Source: Paraphysomonas bandaiensis
Lineage: Eukaryota > Protista > Chrysophyceae
Reading direction: 5' to 3'
Length of the DNA: 64,000 nucleotides
NCBI GenBank assembly: GCA_965644295.1
Contig: CBFFRP010000410.1
Span: 288,307-352,306, forward strand
Within the stretch, counting starts at the first letter, position 1. Every line of letters begins with the position of its first letter. The notes under the pieces were generated by a model. It was given only the letters and a program-made list of their open reading frames with translations. It ran no database searches and had not been told where the DNA came from. This document shows, piece by piece, positions 11,013 to 64,000 of this stretch. The position numbers were made by a program, and so were the translations under genes.

Positions 11013-11180
11013 AATGGGTCCATTAACCATTAAATCGAATCCCTAAAATCTAAACTATATTAAAATATTTTAAAAGTAATATAATTCATTTGTATATAAC
11101 ATTTTAATATATTATTTGATATATATCTTTTATATATTATATAAAAGGGTTGAGGGCTTATAGTTACATAGTTACTCTTA
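11013..11180 (+). mobile_element. Short relic of a PLV-like terminus
   Basis: AATGGGTCC(ATTAACC)ATTAAATCGAATCCCTAAAATCTA matches 51544-51576 and is followed by a very AT-rich tract. Confidence 0.6.
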
Positions 11181-51227: not shown

Positions 51228-52070
51228 TGCGTATAGTGTTAGTTGACCCCACTATGTTGAGGTGTGTTGTTATTAGAGAAATAAGCGTTTGATTAACTGA
51301 GTAGTAACGACAATGAAACGTAGTGTTTGGTATTGCTTGAAGTACTAGAATCGATTAAACAAATTTGTTGTCATAAGATATTTACGCCATTTGGCGAACT
51401 TTACCAAGATCAAGCACCCATCCCATATCTCATAGCTATCGGCATATGCTTTCAGGAAAAATAAAAATCTGTGCGACAAATGTATCGATGTGTAGTACCC
51501 TAAAAAAAAAAAGCGGGATGGCTTATACGCTCCGCTTGCAGGCAATGGGTCCGTTAAATCGAATCCCTAAAATCTATACCTTATTATTTTCCCATAAAAT
51601 AAACAAGAATAATTAGAACGCCCGAATTGCGGAGCAATTTGCGACCAGGGGGGAGGATCTTTAGATCCGGAGGGAGCCTGGTATATTATTCTGAATGTTT
51701 TATATTAATGTAATATCAATCTTTTTTATATATCTTTTATGTATATCTATATTAATAATTCTTCTTATATTATTTCGATTACTAATATCCTATTTATAAA
51801 TTGACATTTTGGCATTGGCATTTTATAGTAAAATAATCTGGCTGAAATAATATTTTATAAAATAGAGTTTCAAAAGTATAAATTGCCAGCGCCTAAATGC
51901 CATCGTCGTTATTATAGTTAAGAGTAGAAAACAGCTCGCCACCATACCTACTACACTATCTTATCGTACCCACACAATAGCGTCATCACTGTCTACTTAT
52001 GTACTATGTCTTTAAGTCATATCGATATTTAAAAAAGGTTTAAAGAATTGATTTGTTGATTACATACCTA

Positions 52071-52124
52071 AAGTATTTTTTATATTAAAACTACTTAAAG
52101 AATTACAAATATAGTATTATTATA
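52071..52124 (+). promoter_or_regulatory. Viral promoter-like block (ACTTAAA motif), duplicated at 52495-52550
   Basis: AAGTATTTTTTATATTAAAACTACTTAAAGAAT is identical at 52071 and 52495; ACTTAAA also precedes ATGs at 54340, 54739 and 57123. Confidence 0.7.
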
Positions 52125-52466
52125 ATGAACGAAACTTTAGACAAACCTGTTTTGATGATGACAAAATTAGAGCAAGATGAAATAAGACAATCTGATGAAT
52201 ACAAAAAAGCTATCAAGTACATACCTTATCTATTTAAAACCCGCAAAACCTTTAATAATAGGCAATGGTCTTATGGAATGAAGCACACTGTAGAAAGATA
52301 CATACGGACTTATAATCTTGAGAACAATTATTACGTTTCTAATAATGCTTTAATATTGGGTATGATAGATTCGGGTTTCAAAGCAAAGCATGAATCTAAC
52401 ACTCAAAATTATATATTCAATTTCACAGAAACTATTATCAACAAAAATATGAGAAAACAACGATAG
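52125..52466 (+). CDS. PLV small protein (SYGxKHxxE...YxSN motif; probably DNA-binding)
   Basis: WSYGMKHTVE...YYVSNNALILGMIDSGF motif, recalled from phage/viral replication loci; preceded by the ACTTAAA motif. Confidence 0.6.
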   Translation: MNETLDKPVLMMTKLEQDEIRQSDEYKKAIKYIPYLFKTRKTFNNRQWSYGMKHTVERYIRTYNLENNYYVSNNALILGMIDSGFKAKHESNTQNYIFNFTETIINKNMRKQR

Positions 52467-52554
52467 AGCCTATTTTTATTTATATTGTCAAATTAAGTAT
52501 TTTTTATATTAAAACTACTTAAAGAATATTTATATATAGTATTATTATAAAAGA

Positions 52555-54297
52555 ATGAATTTTGAAAATTCGATTTTACTGACCTCTGAGGAGATTGAAC
52601 AACTTGTCACTTCTATGTTTCCAAATGACAAGGCAAATACTATTGCCAAAGGATTATGTAACTACTGCTTCATTAACAAAGGAATGATATACTTTCTTGA
52701 ATCTAATATTACATATTCACAGCTACCTTTAAGTGTAGGAAAATCTAAGTTAGTTACTATTATTACGAGTTATATACAGAAATCTTTTCAATCTTTAAGC
52801 GAATACAAACAAGAAATATTGAAATTAAAATACGAAAAATTTTACAAAATATTTCTTAATGCATCTGTATTACAGTATTACGATCAAATAATAACAGTAC
52901 TAGAAATAAAGAAAGTAGTATTTGATACAACGCCCTATGAGATACATTTTAATAATGGATATTATGATCTTCAGCATAATAAATTCAAACAAAGAGAATT
53001 ACACAAACATTATGTTACGCAATATATTCAAAGAGATTATGTAAAGTCTAGTGAAGATGAACGCGATAAAATGATGGAACATATTAGAAAAATTTATCCT
53101 GATAACGAAGATATGAATTGTATTCTTTTAACGCTTGGTTCTGCTCTCAGTGGTAAGTCTAACGTTGATCAAGATACGTTATTTCTCTTGGGAGTAGCGT
53201 CCGCTGGGAAATCGTTTATAATGGAATTATCACAAAAAACATTTGAATGTTACTTTAAAGAATTAAAAAATGACACTTTTAGTCACAACAACAGTAAGAT
53301 TGATAAAATTTTAAATAGTTTTGCAAACAACCCTCAAATTAGGATTACATGGGTTAATGAAATCAAAGATGTTAAAATAGACGAAACACTATTCAAAAAG
53401 TTTTGTGAAGGAAAACTACAAACAACTAAATTATATGAAGATGAATCTCATGATATAACTCATAATTCAAAATCTTTTATAACGGCTAATACTATGCCTA
53501 GTATGAAAATAGATTCCGGTGTAGTTAGACGATTTAAAGGATACACGCATGTAAGTAAGTTTGTAGATAATCCTGATGAAGTGGATGAATCTAATCACAT
53601 TTACCTTAAAGATAAGTACCTACTCGATAATATAGTAAAACACAATCTATTGAATGCATGGTTTGACATATTAGCAAAGTATTGTTACAAGTGGTCAAAA
53701 GGAGAAAAGCCCAAATTTAATAAGAATTTTACAGAAACAAAAGATTCAGTTGTCAATACTAATGACATAATGCAAGACTTTATAGATGGTTATTTCATAA
53801 AAACAGATAAATCATCTGACAGGATAAGTAAAGAACTAATGGAAACATATTTCAAGAAACAATATCCTGATAAACATTTATCAATGGTACAACTGATAAC
53901 ATCATTAAAAGATAAAGGTTTACACTACAATGCTAGTATGCGCGTTGACGGTGTTCGTGGTTGTTTTACAAATATTAAACTGCGAATGAAAAAACTTCTT
54001 AAAAGTGGCGAAGAAAAACGAACCGATTTGACAGAGTACACAATTCAATTAGAAAACGAAATAGAAACATATAAAGATGAAATTGAATATCTTAAACAGC
54101 AATTAAGTATGTTCAATAGACAATCTAAATCAATCAAGTCAAAAAATTCTAAGATGGTCAAAGTTAAGAAAGTTACTTTTGAATATGATACTGACAATGA
54201 CGATGAACCCATACCCGAAACATTTAAAACAAATATATTTAAACAACAAAAAATTGAAAAAGAAGAATTAAATGAAATTATTGATTTACTAAATTAA
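52555..54297 (+). CDS. D5-like superfamily 3 helicase (no AEP primase domain seen)
   Basis: D5_N-like IHFNNGYYDL; Walker A GVASAGKS; Walker B TWVNE; motif C TANTMP; DSGVVRR arginine finger. Confidence 0.88.
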   Translation: MNFENSILLTSEEIEQLVTSMFPNDKANTIAKGLCNYCFINKGMIYFLESNITYSQLPLSVGKSKLVTIITSYIQKSFQSLSEYKQEILKLKYEKFYKIFLNASVLQYYDQIITVLEIKKVVFDTTPYEIHFNNGYYDLQHNKFKQRELHKHYVTQYIQRDYVKSSEDERDKMMEHIRKIYPDNEDMNCILLTLGSALSGKSNVDQDTLFLLGVASAGKSFIMELSQKTFECYFKELKNDTFSHNNSKIDKILNSFANNPQIRITWVNEIKDVKIDETLFKKFCEGKLQTTKLYEDESHDITHNSKSFITANTMPSMKIDSGVVRRFKGYTHVSKFVDNPDEVDESNHIYLKDKYLLDNIVKHNLLNAWFDILAKYCYKWSKGEKPKFNKNFTETKDSVVNTNDIMQDFIDGYFIKTDKSSDRISKELMETYFKKQYPDKHLSMVQLITSLKDKGLHYNASMRVDGVRGCFTNIKLRMKKLLKSGEEKRTDLTEYTIQLENEIETYKDEIEYLKQQLSMFNRQSKSIKSKNSKMVKVKKVTFEYDTDNDDEPIPETFKTNIFKQQKIEKEELNEIIDLLN

Positions 54298-54339
54298 AAA
54301 GTACTTAAAAAATTATTATATATAGTTTAGTTATATATA

Positions 54340-54693
54340 ATGGTAAAAAAGTCTGTTTACACTAAAAAGATTATCAAAGAGAAAACTGTGAAGCACGGAA
54401 AAGAACGAACAATACAATTGTACAGAAATGACAAAAAGAATAATATCTCTGCTCAAGATGTACGCGATATTGTACAAGGATTGCAAAATTCAGATCCAAA
54501 TAAACTATTTATGGTGCGCGCTTTAAACGCAGCCAGATGGAGCACACTCAAAGGATTTTATAGTGACCTAAATGTTGATGATGAAGAAGATTATTATGCA
54601 AATAGAGTCAAAGACACAGATAAGTTTTCAAAGTTCTCACAATTGCAAATTACTGCCTTTGTACCCGATGATATTGAGGATAATTTTGTTTAA
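54340..54693 (+). CDS. PLV protein, candidate stand-alone terminal protein
   Basis: Directly upstream of pPolB with the same upstream motif; RWSTLKGF...DDEEDYY acidic Tyr segment. Function is inference. Confidence 0.5.
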   Translation: MVKKSVYTKKIIKEKTVKHGKERTIQLYRNDKKNNISAQDVRDIVQGLQNSDPNKLFMVRALNAARWSTLKGFYSDLNVDDEEDYYANRVKDTDKFSKFSQLQITAFVPDDIEDNFV

Positions 54694-54738
54694 TATAAAA
54701 CTACTTAAAAAATAATTAATATAATAATAATATATAGA

Positions 54739-55989
54739 ATGTATTTTTATTATAAAATGAATAGTGCCATGTACAGAGTTTTAGATGTTAAGAACTACAT
54801 CTTTTCAGACATGTCACATGAGAAATGTATGAAATTAGAATATGCGTATCAATTGTTTAAAGGATACGAAGCATCAGATGAAGGAATAAAACAGTATGGT
54901 AAAGATTTCAGGGCGTGGTGTAGAGAGATGAGATTTACTAAAAACTTGTCAATTGATTACAAAAAATTTCATTCACACTTGGGCGCTGTTAAATGTGTCT
55001 TTATGCAATATTGTAAAGGAAAATATGAACATCATAAAAAGATTAAAAAAATAGAAAATGGATACTTTCAAGATTGTTACAATGCAGGTTTACAGTTTTG
55101 CGAGCCGGGAGTATTTAATTCATATGGATACGATTTTAGTGGATTTTATCCATCTCTATTGATAGATGATAACTTTTTAATACCAACAAAGAAAGGAAAA
55201 GAAAAATACTTAAAGAAGTTAAAAAAACGTTCTAAACTTAAATACGGAATATACAGAGTTAAAATTACATCTGATAATAAAAACTTTAAAAAGATATTTT
55301 CATTTTCTCCAAAACATACATATACTCATATATCTCTAAAACATGCAATGAAATGCAAAAAGAAATTTGATGTAAATATTGAGTTAATTGTTGATGATAA
55401 ACCAAACGCATACATATACAGAACAAAAGATTTAGTAAAAGCAAGTGAAATATTTGCAGAATGGTACAATCGTTTAATTCAGTTAAAAAAGTTGTATCCC
55501 AACAACAAACTTGTAAAGCATTTGATGTCATCGCTATGGGGAACGTTAACGCAGTACAATATGATATATAAATCATATGATGAATTAGAAAATGAAGGTT
55601 ATGACTGGGGATATACAAAGGAATGCGATTATATTGTACAGGATAAGTATATGTCAGCACATAGTAACGATGAAGAGAATTATAAACTTTTAGATTCAAA
55701 TAATCCTTTTAAATACAATATTAGACTACTTCCGTTTTTGCTTTCATATGCAAGAAACAAAATAGCAGAAGTGGCATTGAAGGATATTGACAACGTCATT
55801 CGTATTCACACAGATAACGTTACTTTTAAGAAAGATCCAAAATTAGATATACCCAATCTATTGCGAGAAGATAAAACTTCGGGTATGATTGAATGGAGAC
55901 ATGTAAATGGATACAATCATATATGTCCAAAGTGTGACGAGCGACTTAAATACAAGGACATAAAAACACATATTGAAGAATGTTGTTAA
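54739..55989 (+). CDS. Short protein-primed-type family B DNA polymerase (no exonuclease motifs; C-terminal C2HC zinc finger)
   Basis: YNAG (YxGG), motif A YDFSGFYPS, TPR1-like YGIYRVKI..YTH, motif B KHLMSSLWG, motif C RIHTDN; tail CPKC-x11-H-x3-C. Confidence 0.85.
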   Translation: MYFYYKMNSAMYRVLDVKNYIFSDMSHEKCMKLEYAYQLFKGYEASDEGIKQYGKDFRAWCREMRFTKNLSIDYKKFHSHLGAVKCVFMQYCKGKYEHHKKIKKIENGYFQDCYNAGLQFCEPGVFNSYGYDFSGFYPSLLIDDNFLIPTKKGKEKYLKKLKKRSKLKYGIYRVKITSDNKNFKKIFSFSPKHTYTHISLKHAMKCKKKFDVNIELIVDDKPNAYIYRTKDLVKASEIFAEWYNRLIQLKKLYPNNKLVKHLMSSLWGTLTQYNMIYKSYDELENEGYDWGYTKECDYIVQDKYMSAHSNDEENYKLLDSNNPFKYNIRLLPFLLSYARNKIAEVALKDIDNVIRIHTDNVTFKKDPKLDIPNLLREDKTSGMIEWRHVNGYNHICPKCDERLKYKDIKTHIEECC

Positions 55990-57032
55990 CGTTTTTTCTT
56001 TTTCTTAATGCTTTTATCAAAATCATCTAATAACTTTTTATCAACAGTTTTTAGTAAATCACTTTTAGCATACCATCCCGCGTCTTTTTTTAACTCTCCA
56101 TACATCCAAACTTGATAGTGATTTTCGCCATCAAAAAATCGCTTATCAAGAATCTTTTTAATTTCAACTTGTTCTTCTTCGGCATCAGGTGCAGGCATTA
56201 GTTCATCTTCTGTAAAGGATGCATTTTTAATACCACTTAACATATATCTGTATGTAACTTTTCCAGGATAATACAATATTTGTTTAATTTGTACAGGTAT
56301 AGGGTCAAAGCGGAAGTCACCTTCTCGGAACACATCAGAATTAATAGTTTCATTTAAAGCATTTTTGGGTTTGTCTAATTTTCGATACACAAAGTCACCC
56401 ACATTATATTTAGGTTTTGATTTGGTTGTGTCTGGAACAGGATACTTATGTGTTGCCAAGTCAATATTAGACACATCTTTCTTCCTTAGTTTATTCAAAT
56501 CTATTCTTAGCTTATCAACTATATCAGTCCATTCTCTATAAATTTTTCCAGTTTTTAACTCAATGCTATTCATATAACCATTAAAAAATCTGCCTAATGT
56601 TCTATTTAAACTCTCCACTGCTGACATTTGTTTATGTCGTCCCGCTAATGCAACGCTATGTAAAATACTTTCGTCGTACAAATATTTTGCAAAACCTTTT
56701 TTAAATGATGCACCGCCATCTGTTCGAATAGAAGCGTACGGTTTATTAAGATGATTACGTTGAAATATAGCCTTTATTGCTTTTAAAGTTTCATCAGAGT
56801 TTTCTGTTTTCATTGGTTCCATATCAAACTCATCAGTTGCCAAATCAACAACAACTAATAAATATTGATATCCTTTTTTATCTTTTGGTAAATGCAACAC
56901 ATCCGCCATAAAGTTATAATCTTCTTTAAGTGGTATATTATCTTTTATTCGATTATATCTTTTCTTCTTGGTTTGTTTACTTGGTCTTGTTAATGTTTCA
57001 TCGATATCATATTTTTTAATAAGATCATTCAT
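55986..57032 (-). CDS. Retroviral-type (rve) DDE integrase with C-terminal chromodomain
   Basis: FMADVLHLP, IRTDGGASF and AVESLNRTL form the D-D-E triad; PKYNVGDFV SH3-like segment; EIKKILDKR...YQVW...AGWYAKSDL chromo-like tail. Confidence 0.9.
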   Translation of the reverse strand: MNDLIKKYDIDETLTRPSKQTKKKRYNRIKDNIPLKEDYNFMADVLHLPKDKKGYQYLLVVVDLATDEFDMEPMKTENSDETLKAIKAIFQRNHLNKPYASIRTDGGASFKKGFAKYLYDESILHSVALAGRHKQMSAVESLNRTLGRFFNGYMNSIELKTGKIYREWTDIVDKLRIDLNKLRKKDVSNIDLATHKYPVPDTTKSKPKYNVGDFVYRKLDKPKNALNETINSDVFREGDFRFDPIPVQIKQILYYPGKVTYRYMLSGIKNASFTEDELMPAPDAEEEQVEIKKILDKRFFDGENHYQVWMYGELKKDAGWYAKSDLLKTVDKKLLDDFDKSIKKKKKR

Positions 57033-57122
57033 AATGATATATAATACACATATAAAAAATATAAATAAACTAACTTAGTAAAAAACACTTAAAAAGAAAT
57101 TAATATATAAGAGTATAGTATA

Positions 57123-57467
57123 ATGAACAAAGAATCAAGAAGAGAGTATAATAAAAAATACTACGCTGAAAAGAAAAGCGCAATATGTGCAAAGCTATTT
57201 GAAAAAGAAGAATGTTTAAAATGTGGCAGAATAGTATCACATCAAAATATGAAGAAACATCAAGCATCAAAAGTATGCATGACAACGGCAGAGAGAAAAC
57301 AAGCAAAGTTAAATGTTTCAAGCGAATTAGAAGCAATAAAACAAGAATTAGAAGACATTAAGAAATCTAAACAAGATTCATTGATGTATTGTTGGGGATG
57401 TCAAGAATCATTTACAGAATCTCAAAAAACTAAACATAAATGTTCAAGTAAACATAGAAATCTTTAA
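57123..57467 (+). CDS. PLV zinc-finger protein
   Basis: CLKCG...HQASKVC and CWGC...HKC motifs; ACTTAAA upstream. Confidence 0.7.
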   Translation: MNKESRREYNKKYYAEKKSAICAKLFEKEECLKCGRIVSHQNMKKHQASKVCMTTAERKQAKLNVSSELEAIKQELEDIKKSKQDSLMYCWGCQESFTESQKTKHKCSSKHRNL

Positions 57468-57748
57468 GTAAAATTTATTATAAATGTATCATCATCGATA
57501 ACTTTATATTTTTTCTGTTTTTTCCTTTTGGTATCCTTTTTTGTGTGTACCCATTTCTTATATTCTTTGTTCTCTTTAAGTGTTTTAATTTTAGTATAAT
57601 AATAGTTTCTAGCATACTCATTACATTTAGCTTTATTATTAAAATAGTAAATTCTATTTCGAATCAATAATGTGTCTCTGTTCTTTAAGTAATATTCATG
57701 ATTATACTGTTTAAGTTTCTCTTTATTCATTATTATATCAATAATCAA
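57464..57748 (-). CDS. PLV small Lys/Tyr-rich protein
   Basis: KQYNHEYYLKNR..EYARNYYY repeats of the kind seen in AT-rich dsDNA viruses; stop overlaps the neighbour's stop in TTAA. Confidence 0.55.
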   Translation of the reverse strand: MIIDIIMNKEKLKQYNHEYYLKNRDTLLIRNRIYYFNNKAKCNEYARNYYYTKIKTLKENKEYKKWVHTKKDTKRKKQKKYKVIDDDTFIINFT

Positions 57749-57754
57749 TAAAAT

Positions 57755-58323
57755 TATAAAATGGCAAGTATCATAGGTAATAGTAATATTTTAAAAGCTT
57801 TTGTTATAGCTATATCAACGGCTCGCTCTGTTGCTGACCGCAAAAAAAACGTGCTACTCTCTTCCAATTACGCCTAATAAAATTCATTTTTTAATTCGTG
57901 GAAGTAATATCTCAACCATTTTGACAATTAATTCCCGATGTCATTATTGAAATATTTTTTAACCGCTTCAGCTTCAACCGCTAGTTTTTTCTATCACCAG
58001 ATTTCGGTTTTGCTTGATAAAATTTTCAACTGCTTGACAAGTAAATAATAGAATTTGTTCATTGTATTTATTTGAATCAGGATCAAAGAGATCTAAAACG
58101 AGATTGGATTTTAGTAACTAATTCGTACTGTTGATTTTCAAGTTTAATCTCTTTTAATTTTGTCAGAAAGTCCATTTAATCCCAACATTAAATAGTTTTT
58201 TGTGCTGGAATCGATCGATGTCTGAAACTACATTCACGTTTAACTTCAGCTTTCTATCTCTTTAGTTTCTTCAACTCCTAGAGGTCTGTTGTTGTCGTTG
58301 TCTTTAATAACTACTTTTCTCAT
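57755..58323 (-). pseudogene. PLV hypothetical protein with hydrophobic C-terminus (frameshifted as read)
   Basis: MRKVVIKDNDNNRP... can be joined across several 1-nt shifts to ...RRNWKRVARFF...KILLLPMILAIL. Confidence 0.45.
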
Positions 58324-60013: not shown

Positions 60014-60073
60014 TATATAGTTACTGGTATGAAAAAATATTTACAAAATATTAATATATTTACTCATAATATA

Positions 60074-60806
60074 ATGAAAATAACAGAAACACCTTCTGAT
60101 TTGCCTAATACAGCACCTATTAAAGAAGTTATGGACGTCTATATACCAAACATCAATGAACACTTACCACGTCGAAATGGGTTTATATATACTTTAATAG
60201 GATCTGGCGGATCAGGAAAAAACAAGTTTATTATTGTCAATGTTTAAGTCATCTAGATTTTACAGAGCCAAATTTGATAATATATACTTAATCACCCCAC
60301 AGAGTAGCTTTCTCAGTGTCTCGCGATCATCCATTTGGAACGCATGGAAAGGTATATCATGAATTAACACCGGAATTATTGGATATAATATATGATGAAT
60401 TATCAAACTTAAAAGAAAGTAATATAGAGCAGGAGTATTCCTCCAGAATATAATTTAGTTATTATTGATGATTATGCAAATCATTTAAAAGACAATGTTT
60501 TAATTAAACATTTGAACAGAATGCTTATCAAAGCAAGACATTTAAATACAGCTTTTGTTTTTACGTTACAATCATATAATTTATTTCCATTAACATTGAG
60601 AAAAACAAATAACTAACATGACTTTGTTTAAACCTAAAAATCAACAAGAGTGGACAGTTGTAACATCAGAACTTATTAAATCATGACAAAAGATAATGCT
60701 GTTGAGCTCTATGATTATGTTTATGATAAAAACTATAATCATTTAGATGCTGATACAGTTGAAAACAAATTATTTAAAAAACTTTAACACGCTATCAATT
60801 GGATAA
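60074..60806 (+). CDS. A32-like (FtsK-HerA) genome packaging ATPase, frameshifted as read
   Basis: Walker A GSGGSGK; Walker B LVIIDD; KARH arginine finger and TLQSY motif; joined across homopolymer indels. Confidence 0.85.
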
Positions 60807-61180: not shown

Positions 61181-61911
61181 ACTATGTATCTTTTAAATAG
61201 TAAGAGTGCAAATAGATATATATCAGGTAATACATCAGATTGTATATTTCATTTACCTGTTATCAACATACCAAAACATAGGAAGATATTTTGTTCGGTT
61301 CAAACGGCGATGCCACACTTTATTCATTTTTATAACATTAGTTCAATTAATAACACTTTAAAATATACAGTCAATGGTGGTGGAGTACAAACATGTAGCT
61401 ATTACAGAAGGAAATTATAACGTTAATACCTTGATAACAGCAATTACAACTGGCATACCCGCTTTAACAATCACGTATAACAGCAAAACAAACAAATTAA
61501 CCTTTTCACATAGTACATATGATTTTACATTTGAATCAAATAGTACTTGGTTGGAAGGATTCTTGGTTTTACAGATGATACAACATACTCGTCAACGTCA
61601 CAAGTGCTTACAAGTACCATATCAATTAATTTATTCACAATTAGAAATGTTTATGTTACATCTGATAACTTTCAAATCAATAATATTAACAATTCAACAC
61701 CTAATAAAAGTAATATATTATGCAGTATTCCTGTAGATTCTTCCCATCACAGTATGATCAGTTACTCATAATATATACAATGTTCGTAATATGATCTATA
61801 ATGTTCATAATTTAACAAATTTACATGTTAAACTCACGGATCAAAGATGATGATGTGCTTGATCTGAATGGAGTTCATTGGTCTTTAACTCTAGAGCTTG
61901 TTATAGAATAA
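61170..61911 (+). CDS. Minor capsid (penton, single jelly-roll) protein, frameshifted as read
   Basis: LNSK..N, ITEGNYNVNTL, RILGF, ILCSIPV and terminal LTDQ..DLNGVHWSLTLEL motifs typical of PLV pentons. Confidence 0.8.
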
Positions 61912-61932
61912 TTAAATATAGTGTATATATAC

Positions 61933-62300: not shown

Positions 62301-63603
62301 AAAAAGGTTCTGTTTTTAAAAGATTAACATGACATGTTTGCTGATGATGATTCTCTTGCCAACATTCTTCTCTAAATGAACATATGATTGTGTTGGTCGG
62401 CTTTCTTTTATCTTCTTATCTTAATAATGATGCTAAAAATTCCCGTAGCAACGGCGATTAGGTGCCTCCTGTCAGCACTGCTCTTTTTTATTTAATGATG
62501 ACGTGACCTGCCTGATCCAGGCTGGGGCTTATATTATTTATTTCTACATGAAACTCAGATCTCTGTTGGCGGTCTACAATCAACTCCTATAAATTCCTGA
62601 CAGGCTGTGAGCAACTGCAATGGAGCAGACAATGCCGCTGTGCCGTTGGATAAGGGCAGAACTCACGGACTGCTGTTCATGAGGCTGTGAACTTTCTCAG
62701 CGGTTTATCAGACAAGCACTGAAGGCTGTTGAGAGTATTGCAAGCATCCTATGACTTCTTATTTATGCGCCATTTTGCAACAATCCAAATTCTACTTGGG
62801 CCTGAAGTCTTTCTTCTTGACTGCAGTTTAACGAAGTTCTTGTGTGATGCGTTTTAATTCCATGATAGCAGTGCAGTGCCTCTGCTAAAGACTGGAAGCT
62901 TAATGGTAACCTGAAGGACACTGCCTTACTCTTCAGTGAAAAACTGTGTGTTGATTTGACAACACAGTTTTGCAGTGCTCTTCTGGAAATGCTACTGAAC
63001 TGCCAACTATGCCATCTATGTGTGTTCTTTTCTGTTGTTTGACTCTCTCTTGCAAAAATAATTGTTTATCAGAAATAGACTTCAGCCCTAATTTTAACAC
63101 TTGTAACAGTTAACCATTCTGGCTTTTTTTCTGTCTAACATGATGTGCTGTGGTTGTGCTGTCATTTATGGGAGCTATGATGTGCCTAATAGATACAAAT
63201 ATTGTTCTCTTTACCTGATGAAGACTTCTTTGAACATGATTGTTCTATGGAGAACTCTGTTACAATCTGCTCATTCATAAGCAGTATATGATTTTATCTA
63301 TATACCTTTATTAAATTCAATGACACAAATTCTGCTGCAACAGAAGAGTATAAAACATTTCTTCTTTGTTTTCTTATAGGTTATTTCTCTTGTAATTCTC
63401 ATGTTTCTGCTGTAGCTGAGATTGCATTCCCAGGTTCATATCAGCTCTTAAGGCCTTTCTGGTTTTCAGCTGAAGCTACTAGGCTATGGTGGCATTTATG
63501 GATATAGTCACAGACAAATGGATTTAGGAAGATTATGATGTTGATGTCTGCAGTTTAATGCTGGGGCAGGGGTGTGTATGAATTGATTTGCTGCTCAGTT
63601 CAG

Positions 63604-63812
63604 GCTTTCTTTGTTGGTATGGATCTTGAAACATATATTCAAATGCTGATAAAGATTCTATCTACTCAGGATACAATACCTCTAATGATGATGTGTTTTG
63701 GCACTGTACATATAACGCAAATGCAACAACACCATCCGTAAGATTTGATACATACGCTATGTATGACGCTGTTATGGTGTGTGAAGCCGGAGTCTGCTAC
63801 ACTCAATTCTGA
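63604..63812 (+). CDS. C-terminal fragment of PLV major capsid protein (double jelly-roll); not in the ORF track
   Basis: AFFVGMDLETY/SNADKDSIYSGYNTSNDDVF...RFDTYAMYDAVMVCEAGVCYTQF* (one +2 shift) fits the PLV MCP C-terminal pattern F-x-G-x-D-L-E...SG-x-NT...YD-x-V. Confidence 0.75.
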
Positions 63813-63853: not shown

Positions 63854-64000
63854 ATGCCTGATTATCAGAAAGGAAAGATTTATAAAATTGAAGGAGGTGG
63901 AAAAACTTATTACGGATCCCACATGTGAGAGCAGTGTCAAATCGGCTTGCACAGCATAGATATGCTCGTGATAGATATAACCGAGGACAAGCAAGCATCA
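63854..64000 (+). CDS. GIY-YIG endonuclease, 5' part
   Basis: MPDYQKGKIYKIEGGGKTYYGS...RLAQH; ATTTAAAGA upstream. Confidence 0.8.

Follow-up and report, generated by a model that had tools for sequence, protein, structure and literature searches.

The 64,000-nucleotide stretch of DNA analysed here (the window) contains a low-GC block that begins near 51.5 kb within eukaryotic DNA and carries the features listed in Table 1. A helicase gene is followed by a 117-aa open reading frame (ORF), a polymerase gene, a convergent integrase gene, small ORFs, an A32 ATPase gene and likely capsid genes, and the host flank includes a VPS13-like gene and a NAF-domain kinase gene. Read-run depth is 37.7 in the host flank and 57-227 in the element – contig depth not being equal to copy number – and one contig crosses the left junction; an integrated, multi-copy element fits these data. 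No partner terminal repeat was found within the 64-kb window, and the right end of the element lies beyond position 64000 or escaped detection. Two RNA runs contain 0.28 and 0.16 of the words, and the metagenomes that contain the polymerase module are marine. The element is likely an endogenous polinton-like virus (PLV), in which the A32 ATPase is supported and the capsid genes are named by position and by similarity to unnamed relatives: the likely minor capsid gene by position and size, with no family hit, and the major capsid gene from relatives that have no Pfam match.

Table 1. Features of the element and their positions in the window
Feature	Position	Strand	Basis and remarks
Left junction of element and host DNA, approximate	51500..51535	.	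Depth step, contig ends, GC drop
Superfamily 3 (SF3; D5/P4-type) helicase without primase domain, 580 aa	52555..54297	+	Profile matches
Candidate stand-alone terminal (priming) protein, 117 aa	54340..54693	+	PRD1-type/little-finger topology; model, homologues, tree distances
Tyr85, candidate priming residue	54592..54594	+	Tyr in 42 of 42 aligned rows
Spacer between small gene and polymerase, 45 nt	54694..54738	+	Contains another in-frame stop and one copy of the AAAACTACTTAAA repeat
Protein-primed family B polymerase (pPolB) ORF	54739..55989	+	416 aa, uninterrupted, complete (ORF reading, fold model, homologue alignment)
Exonuclease-domain remnant without ExoI DxE	54739..55074	+	Likely structural only; fold and homologue alignment
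Motif A	55132..55152	+	D132, steric-gate-position Y137; homologue alignment
Motif B variant, K260-xxx-S-S-x-W-G	55516..55542	+	Homologue alignment
Motif C variant, R-I-H-T-D359-N	55801..55818	+	Homologue alignment
RVE-type integrase, 348 aa, convergent with polymerase	55986..57032	-	Pfam rve match (E 1.9e-07) that falls slightly short of the curated threshold
A32-like packaging ATPase, frameshifted in assembly	60068..60790	+	tblastn with L003/L024 ATPases (which match Pox_A32)
Likely minor capsid (penton), frameshifted in assembly	61184..61917	+	tblastn with L016/L024/L039 positional equivalents
Likely major capsid	62340..63812	+	Only the last ~58 codons align clearly; remainder unreadable in assembly

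Several further features of the element were recorded. Between 57800 and 63800, contigs of four runs differ at many indels in the structural genes and none covers 62677-63127; noise in the assembly or a single decayed copy may account for the breaks. A 36-nt segment at the left end region (51551-51586) has an 89% match in host DNA 40 kb upstream (11027-11062). A 113-aa ORF (52125-52466) is flanked by two identical 33-nt repeats (52071-52527), and one contig of run X4 lacks precisely the 424 nt that hold it; the ORF is likely an accessory gene gained or lost through recombination between upstream repeats. AAAACTACTTAAA-like repeats are present at 52087, 52511, 54297, 54697 and 57081, 40-45 nt ahead of five start codons of the element, and are a possible promoter motif. 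In a weak test, with the motif chosen after the window had been viewed, 11 of 42 and 8 of 55 upstream regions were positive, with shuffle maxima of 5 and 7. Elsewhere, the block of helicase, small gene, polymerase and integrase adjoins differing morphogenetic gene sets (L084/L096, L097, L098, L101 and L024), one of which includes a weak match to an adenain-like protease, and one contig (L100) couples an integrase of the same family with a Sputnik-type capsid and ends before any polymerase.

The helicase matches primase-helicase profiles from its residue 110-148 onward, and the best profile is entered at position 464 of 855, so that no primase domain fits before the helicase; the original prediction of a partner helicase without a primase domain is therefore sound. 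Each of the 19 loci that extend at least 2500 nt upstream of the polymerase has an SF3 helicase (16 loci, plus three recognized by Pfam), and an RVE integrase adjoins the polymerase in 43 of 45 loci. Locus L003 is ~90% identical in DNA over 54141-58166, yet it has a different (DUF5906-type) helicase; in this swap (52555-54140 in the window versus 154-1755 in L003) only the last ~100 aa are common to both. The two helicase types each co-occur with the polymerase module, in 5 versus 11 of 19 loci.

The polymerase has the motifs Y114-N-A-G, D132-FSGFYPS, K260-HLMSSLWG and R355-IHTD359-N. In an alignment of 251 homologues the catalytic D132 is retained in 249 (the other two being gaps), K260 of motif B in all 251, and D359 of motif C in 247. 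The departures from consensus are also family traits: Ser replaces Asn in motif B (S264) in 235/251 and Trp replaces Tyr (W267) in 216/251, while position 357 in motif C is His in 134 and Gln in 67, for a total of 201 with either residue. The 416-aa reading frame with altered motifs B and C and both essential aspartates is thus as first described, and motif C of the homologues, for which a collection of the HTD form had been proposed, is mostly H/Q-T-D.

Two readings would deprive this ORF of an enzymatic role. One is that it is a truncated pseudogene or an assembly artefact, as the frameshifts in the structural genes to its right in the same assembly might suggest. The homologues argue otherwise, with a constant size among hundreds of sequences. 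A word-based search found 180 relatives among 3512 candidates (size range 228-728 aa), and a profile search returned 2266, 1773 and 945 clusters at E-values of 1e-3, 1e-10 and 1e-30, with the best 150 relatives spanning 288-566 aa. Among polymerase ORFs in 74 metagenome loci, 47 of the 51 complete ones are 368-473 aa and the remaining four are short or split. No longer relative was seen among candidates of 878-2505 aa, which is weak evidence from a word-based search, the two such searches having covered 228-728 and 878-2505 aa with 729-877 aa outside both. The polymerase dN/dS is 0.07-0.23 for six of 11 pairs (the other five being saturated) and 0.13 against a relative with 96% identity, and the gene is under purifying selection. 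Positions 54148-55158 are moreover identical, with no differences, in contigs from an independent run. The pseudogene or artefact reading, with a probability close to nil, is already refuted.

The second reading is that the fold is catalytically dead and has a structural role beside the helicase. Motifs B and C do depart from consensus, and related palm domains were initially called inactivated (PMC5499653), but the near-invariance of D132, K260 and D359 speaks against such a loss, and the inactivation view was later reversed by its own authors because active PolBs lack the same Asp (PMC11161782). We regard a dead enzyme as very improbable.

The family is poorly visible to annotation. Pfam DNA_pol_B_2 matches just one of 68 family members at E<=0.01, and the sequence of the polymerase is without a match in Pfam, NCBIfam, PHROGs, PDB sequences or phage records. 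In the ESM Atlas its leads were below 0.9, with DNA_pol_B_2 in 11-32% of cluster members. Domain families that are matched on family members include NUMOD4, HNH_3 and DUF5710; N-terminal extensions of 65-165 aa occur on 18 of the 251 homologues (e.g. P0028, P0066, P0081, P0103 and P0105), and many of these resemble NUMOD4/HNH or DUF5710 domains.

Structure is more informative. The AF2 model of the polymerase (pLDDT 96.7) has a palm and fingers fold with the catalytic Asp residues in motifs A and C and the Lys in motif B. Its top viral match is the mavirus pPolB (E 2e-25, TMq 0.75, 402 columns of 617 aa), and its top PDB match is the phi29 polymerase (Z 18.2, rmsd 4.9, 349 residues aligned, spanning phi29 residues 8-540), a comparison that the original prediction had proposed. 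The second-best structural match is BFVD entry A0A3G5A8K3, a 339-aa polymerase labelled Harvfovirus (TMt 0.76), and the label suggests such an element within, or binned with, a giant virus. The model supports a family B polymerase of the protein-primed type that lacks proofreading; fold, motifs and purifying selection all bear out the earlier assignment in this respect.

The proposal that the N-terminus is free of an exonuclease holds in part. The N-terminus is intact in 215 of the 251 homologues. Only one of these has DxE in strand 1, which argues against an active 3'-5' exonuclease, and counted from the first strand they reach the YxGG-like motif after 107-135 aa (median 115). A reduced exonuclease fold nevertheless persists: the N-terminus is modelled as a shrunken three-strand meander with helices that aligns from phi29 residue 8, and an ExoIII-like helix with Asp (D56) is present in 150/215. 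The complete DEDD domain that would have contradicted the proposal is not seen in this remnant of ~110 aa, whose resemblance to T7 polymerase 1-210 (Z 3.2) and to exonuclease X (Z 2.9) is weak. No OTU chain is among the best 50 VIA matches of the whole polymerase model, and the first N-terminal hairpin could still be a vOTU leftover.

Two further regions bear on how the enzyme would work. The segments of 111-121 aa from motif A to motif B and of 52-66 aa past motif B (5th-95th percentile) have the size of TPR1 and TPR2 and indicate, together with the alignment across phi29 8-540, that both insertions are kept. The C-terminus extends a median of 41 aa past the motif-C Asp (n=244) versus 117 in phi29 (458 to 575), and therefore most of the thumb is missing; the full thumb of phi29-like members is absent. 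The motif-B Trp, at the position of phi29 Tyr390 within the nascent-pair pocket, may by analogy alter base selection, and it is a plausible prediction that the polymerase is error-prone. Losing the thumb, the exonuclease and the motif-B Asn/Tyr together could leave the enzyme badly impaired in processive synthesis. No assayed enzyme of this lineage was found in the literature text available.

The loss of the thumb raises the alternative that the enzyme is an initiator only, which charges a terminal protein (TP) and makes a short primer, with a host or giant-virus polymerase copying the genome behind the SF3 helicase. In phi29 the thumb includes residues 538-575 (PMC1475753) and closes a processivity ring with TPR2 (PMC4974454), and the presence of the helicase in every locus with sufficient upstream sequence would suit such a division of labour. 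The TPR2-sized insert and the exonuclease remnant are nonetheless found family-wide, fitting strand-displacing elongation, and the steric-gate-position Y137 (229/251) and all dNTP-binding positions checked are also conserved. We therefore consider an initiator-only role unlikely.

A candidate protein primer is encoded by the 117-aa ORF upstream. Homologues of this gene are found in 48 of 74 loci and in all 27 where at least 1500 nt of upstream sequence is present; with five viral contigs added, and near-duplicates included, it is found in 34 of 35 loci having at least 1000 nt upstream. The exception, L098, has a 147-aa ORF at the equivalent place with a weak match to the small protein (E 0.0095, probability 4%). 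The gap between the small gene and the polymerase varies from 35 to 838 nt and other genes intervene in some loci, showing that the split between the two is real. Expression as a fusion through readthrough or frameshifting was ruled out by two in-frame stops at this locus and elsewhere by the gap lengths, intervening ORFs and, in L040, location on the opposite strand. The small gene has dN/dS values of 0.05-0.33 (five pairs), indicating purifying selection. A word-based search with the small protein found one near-identical relative only, and the ESM Atlas gave no usable match.

The model of the small protein (pLDDT 83.5) has the element order b0-b1-a1-b2-b3-a2-b4, which we read as the topology of PRD1-type TPs, described as four strands, an optional b0 and two helices (PMC11161782). 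The mavirus pPolB is the second-ranked BFVD match (E 0.009, TMq 0.51), and this match probably falls in its TP domain, Foldseek giving no matched range in mavirus; the PRD1 and adenovirus TPs are unnamed among the best 50 BFVD matches. Y-family polymerases account for 22 of the best 50 structure matches (five distinct proteins), with Z 3.9-4.8 over 79-98 residues for Y-family little-finger domains and Z 4.0 (rmsd 4.4, 85 aligned) for the isolated little finger of Pol IV. Published TPs match the little-finger fold with Z 3.4-8.5 (PMC11161782). These little-finger matches tie with or rank below unrelated folds (best Z 5.6), and no fold match was obtained at E 1e-3 or Z 8.

All 42 rows of the alignment have Tyr at position 85 and Lys at position 71, and in 38 of them D/E precedes the Tyr. 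The alignment omits seven of the 48 hits: three duplicates, two open-ended sequences, one truncated sequence and L038, whose homologue has a deletion across the Tyr85 site. Published TP linking sites are Ser or Tyr in the loop between a2 and b4 with Gly or Pro nearby (PMC11161782). In the model Tyr85 belongs to the final turn of helix a2 (79-87) and not to the a2-b4 loop, which has no conserved hydroxyl residue, and alignment columns 79-95 contain no conserved Gly or Pro. Tree distances of the small gene and the polymerase correlate (rho 0.79, n=39; 0 of 999 permutations), and in 22 loci rho is 0.81 for this pair and 0.17 and 0.29 for either gene paired with the adjacent integrase. The correlation fits a working pair and is not proof of co-evolution, because linked genes share ancestry. 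A complex prediction for the polymerase and the small protein gave a score of 0.00, which counts neither way, alignments having been unused and the partner fold being uncertain.

These properties also accommodate an accessory protein that binds DNA or aids processivity, its little-finger-like fold taking the place of the thumb, with priming occurring de novo or from hairpin ends. Pipolin PolBs prime de novo. Fold scores do not separate a TP from a little finger, Tyr85 lies within a helix in the model, and the position that we read as equivalent to KxY is N-x-Y in the polymerase family (N 189/251, Y 175/251). The little-finger fold binds DNA in Y-family polymerases (PMC11161782). A TPR1-sized insert, which in phi29 binds the TP (PMC4974454), is nevertheless retained, the nearest structural relative bears the same fold as its TP (PMC11161782), and a priming residue would be expected to look like the Tyr seen here, which is invariant and lies in an acidic stretch shortly ahead of b4. 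An accessory role thus appears rather unlikely, and the 117-aa gene likely encodes, judging from the models, the protein primer that mavirus carries fused to its polymerase.

We therefore favour, as fairly probable, the reading that this is a mavirus-type PolB that has neither TP nor vOTU, no proofreading site and little of the thumb, and that likely replicates a linear PLV genome with the 117-aa protein as its predicted primer. By analogy to phi29, the polymerase would hold the small protein through TPR1 and TPR2, and at either end of the genome its two aspartates would join the first dNMP to Tyr85; the two remaining aspartates would then drive elongation. The exonuclease remnant and TPR2 would close the template tunnel, and the SF3 helicase would open the duplex, offsetting the lost thumb and exonuclease in processivity and unwinding. 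Polymerase errors would be left uncorrected. Protein priming would make a primase unnecessary. A primer synthesized apart from the polymerase would likewise leave the vOTU protease redundant, which would explain the loss of that domain.

The closest described system is that of mavirus, whose pPolB has a TP-vOTU-PALM organization, an exonuclease remnant, no first motif-C Asp and a separate SF3 helicase (Krupovic et al. 2024, PMC11161782). The element shares with mavirus the ~400-column structural match of the polymerase, the exonuclease remnant, the lost first motif-C Asp, an SF3 helicase on its own gene and an RVE integrase; this closeness rests on structural ranking and not on a sequence tree. 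The two differ in that the mavirus protein is 617 aa with TP and vOTU fused, whereas the 416-aa polymerase is without either and the candidate TP is a separate gene. About 200 aa of mavirus pPolB (TP plus vOTU) thus appear to have no counterpart, a figure taken from the lengths because the matched mavirus range is not given. No extension longer than 50 aa is present in 233 of 251 homologues, and the extensions of the other 18 do not match the small-protein profile. When a mavirus-like fused TP-vOTU-polymerase relative was sought, 17 of 19 loci gave unrelated or weak candidates, as did two of two further loci, and five polymerases on further contigs are all of the short type.

Thousands of 'palm-retaining truncated pPolBs' have been catalogued, and the SF3 helicase is the commonest partner of the mavirus group (PMC13215967). 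Those with an SF3 helicase and an RVE integrase are treated as a lineage, pMVRE group 1 (Wei et al. 2026, PMC13215967), which resembles the present family in its SF3 (DUF5906) helicase, its RVE integrase and its occurrence in aquatic metagenomes and protist genomes; the 416-aa polymerase family very likely lies within this set. Stand-alone SF3 helicases are also marked on the pPolB tree of a 2026 preprint (10.64898/2026.10.13.758929). The original prediction had held the polymerase and its replication scheme to be unusual, but the exonuclease loss, the loss of the motif-C Asp and the separate SF3 helicase are in print, since PMC11161782 and PMC13215967 describe them, and a lower fidelity has been suggested for the mavirus pPolB (PMC11161782). 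The distinctive point, which the prediction did not include, is the separate candidate TP gene together with the absence of vOTU. The terms 'terminal protein', 'vOTU' and 'thumb' are absent from the main text of PMC13215967, and the first two from its eight text supplements, and therefore the split architecture is undescribed in that text.

Other protein-primed systems share some of these features. In adenovirus (pTP and pol), a Stylophora polinton and PRD1, a TP of the PRD1/little-finger fold is encoded on its own gene (PMC11161782). The eukaryotic split-TP systems retain an inactive or active vOTU on a polymerase with a full exonuclease, unlike the 416-aa polymerase, and the adenovirus and PRD1 TPs have helical extensions, said to bind the polymerase, that the 117-aa protein lacks (PMC11161782). 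The Tlr1-like pPolB-S1H fusions of PLVs and transpovirons have, as here, a palm with TPR1 and TPR2, no exonuclease and an altered motif C, but they are large TP-vOTU-PALM-SF1 helicase fusions, whereas the helicase here is SF3 and separate. The phi29 polymerase has the same two catalytic Asp residues and TPR1/TPR2 layout, and differs in its active exonuclease, a thumb extending to residue 575, canonical motifs, independence of a helicase and an unrelated helical TP. In the literature text searched, though figures, preprint supplements and subscription reviews may show it, a truncated pPolB lacking TP and vOTU with a separate TP gene is undescribed, and split TPs appear only with vOTU retained (adenovirids and one coral polinton).

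Exonuclease loss itself is thus already in print, and what differs is the polymerase without TP and vOTU and its separate candidate TP gene. On balance we think that these genes represent a lineage of viruses, widespread in protists, that replicates by protein priming with only two genes (~530 aa), composed of a bare little-finger TP of 100-120 aa that primes from Tyr and a stripped polymerase of 400 aa; the lineage amounts to about a thousand 50%-identity clusters that are almost invisible to Pfam. Because the family escapes annotation, it may be present in some of the elements on record as 'helicase only'. In the published scenario, nearly all eukaryotic polinton-like elements have the TP joined to pPolB by way of a vOTU protease, and adenovirids and bidnavirids never lost vOTU. 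A large family with a detached TP and no vOTU would support the view that vOTU serves TP release, and would add another independent TP split, here with complete vOTU loss. It would also be smaller than any protein-primed replicase whose description we found, and might serve as an orthogonal, error-prone replication tool. With two small separate proteins and a named residue, Tyr85, protein priming in virophages and PLVs would become directly testable in vitro.
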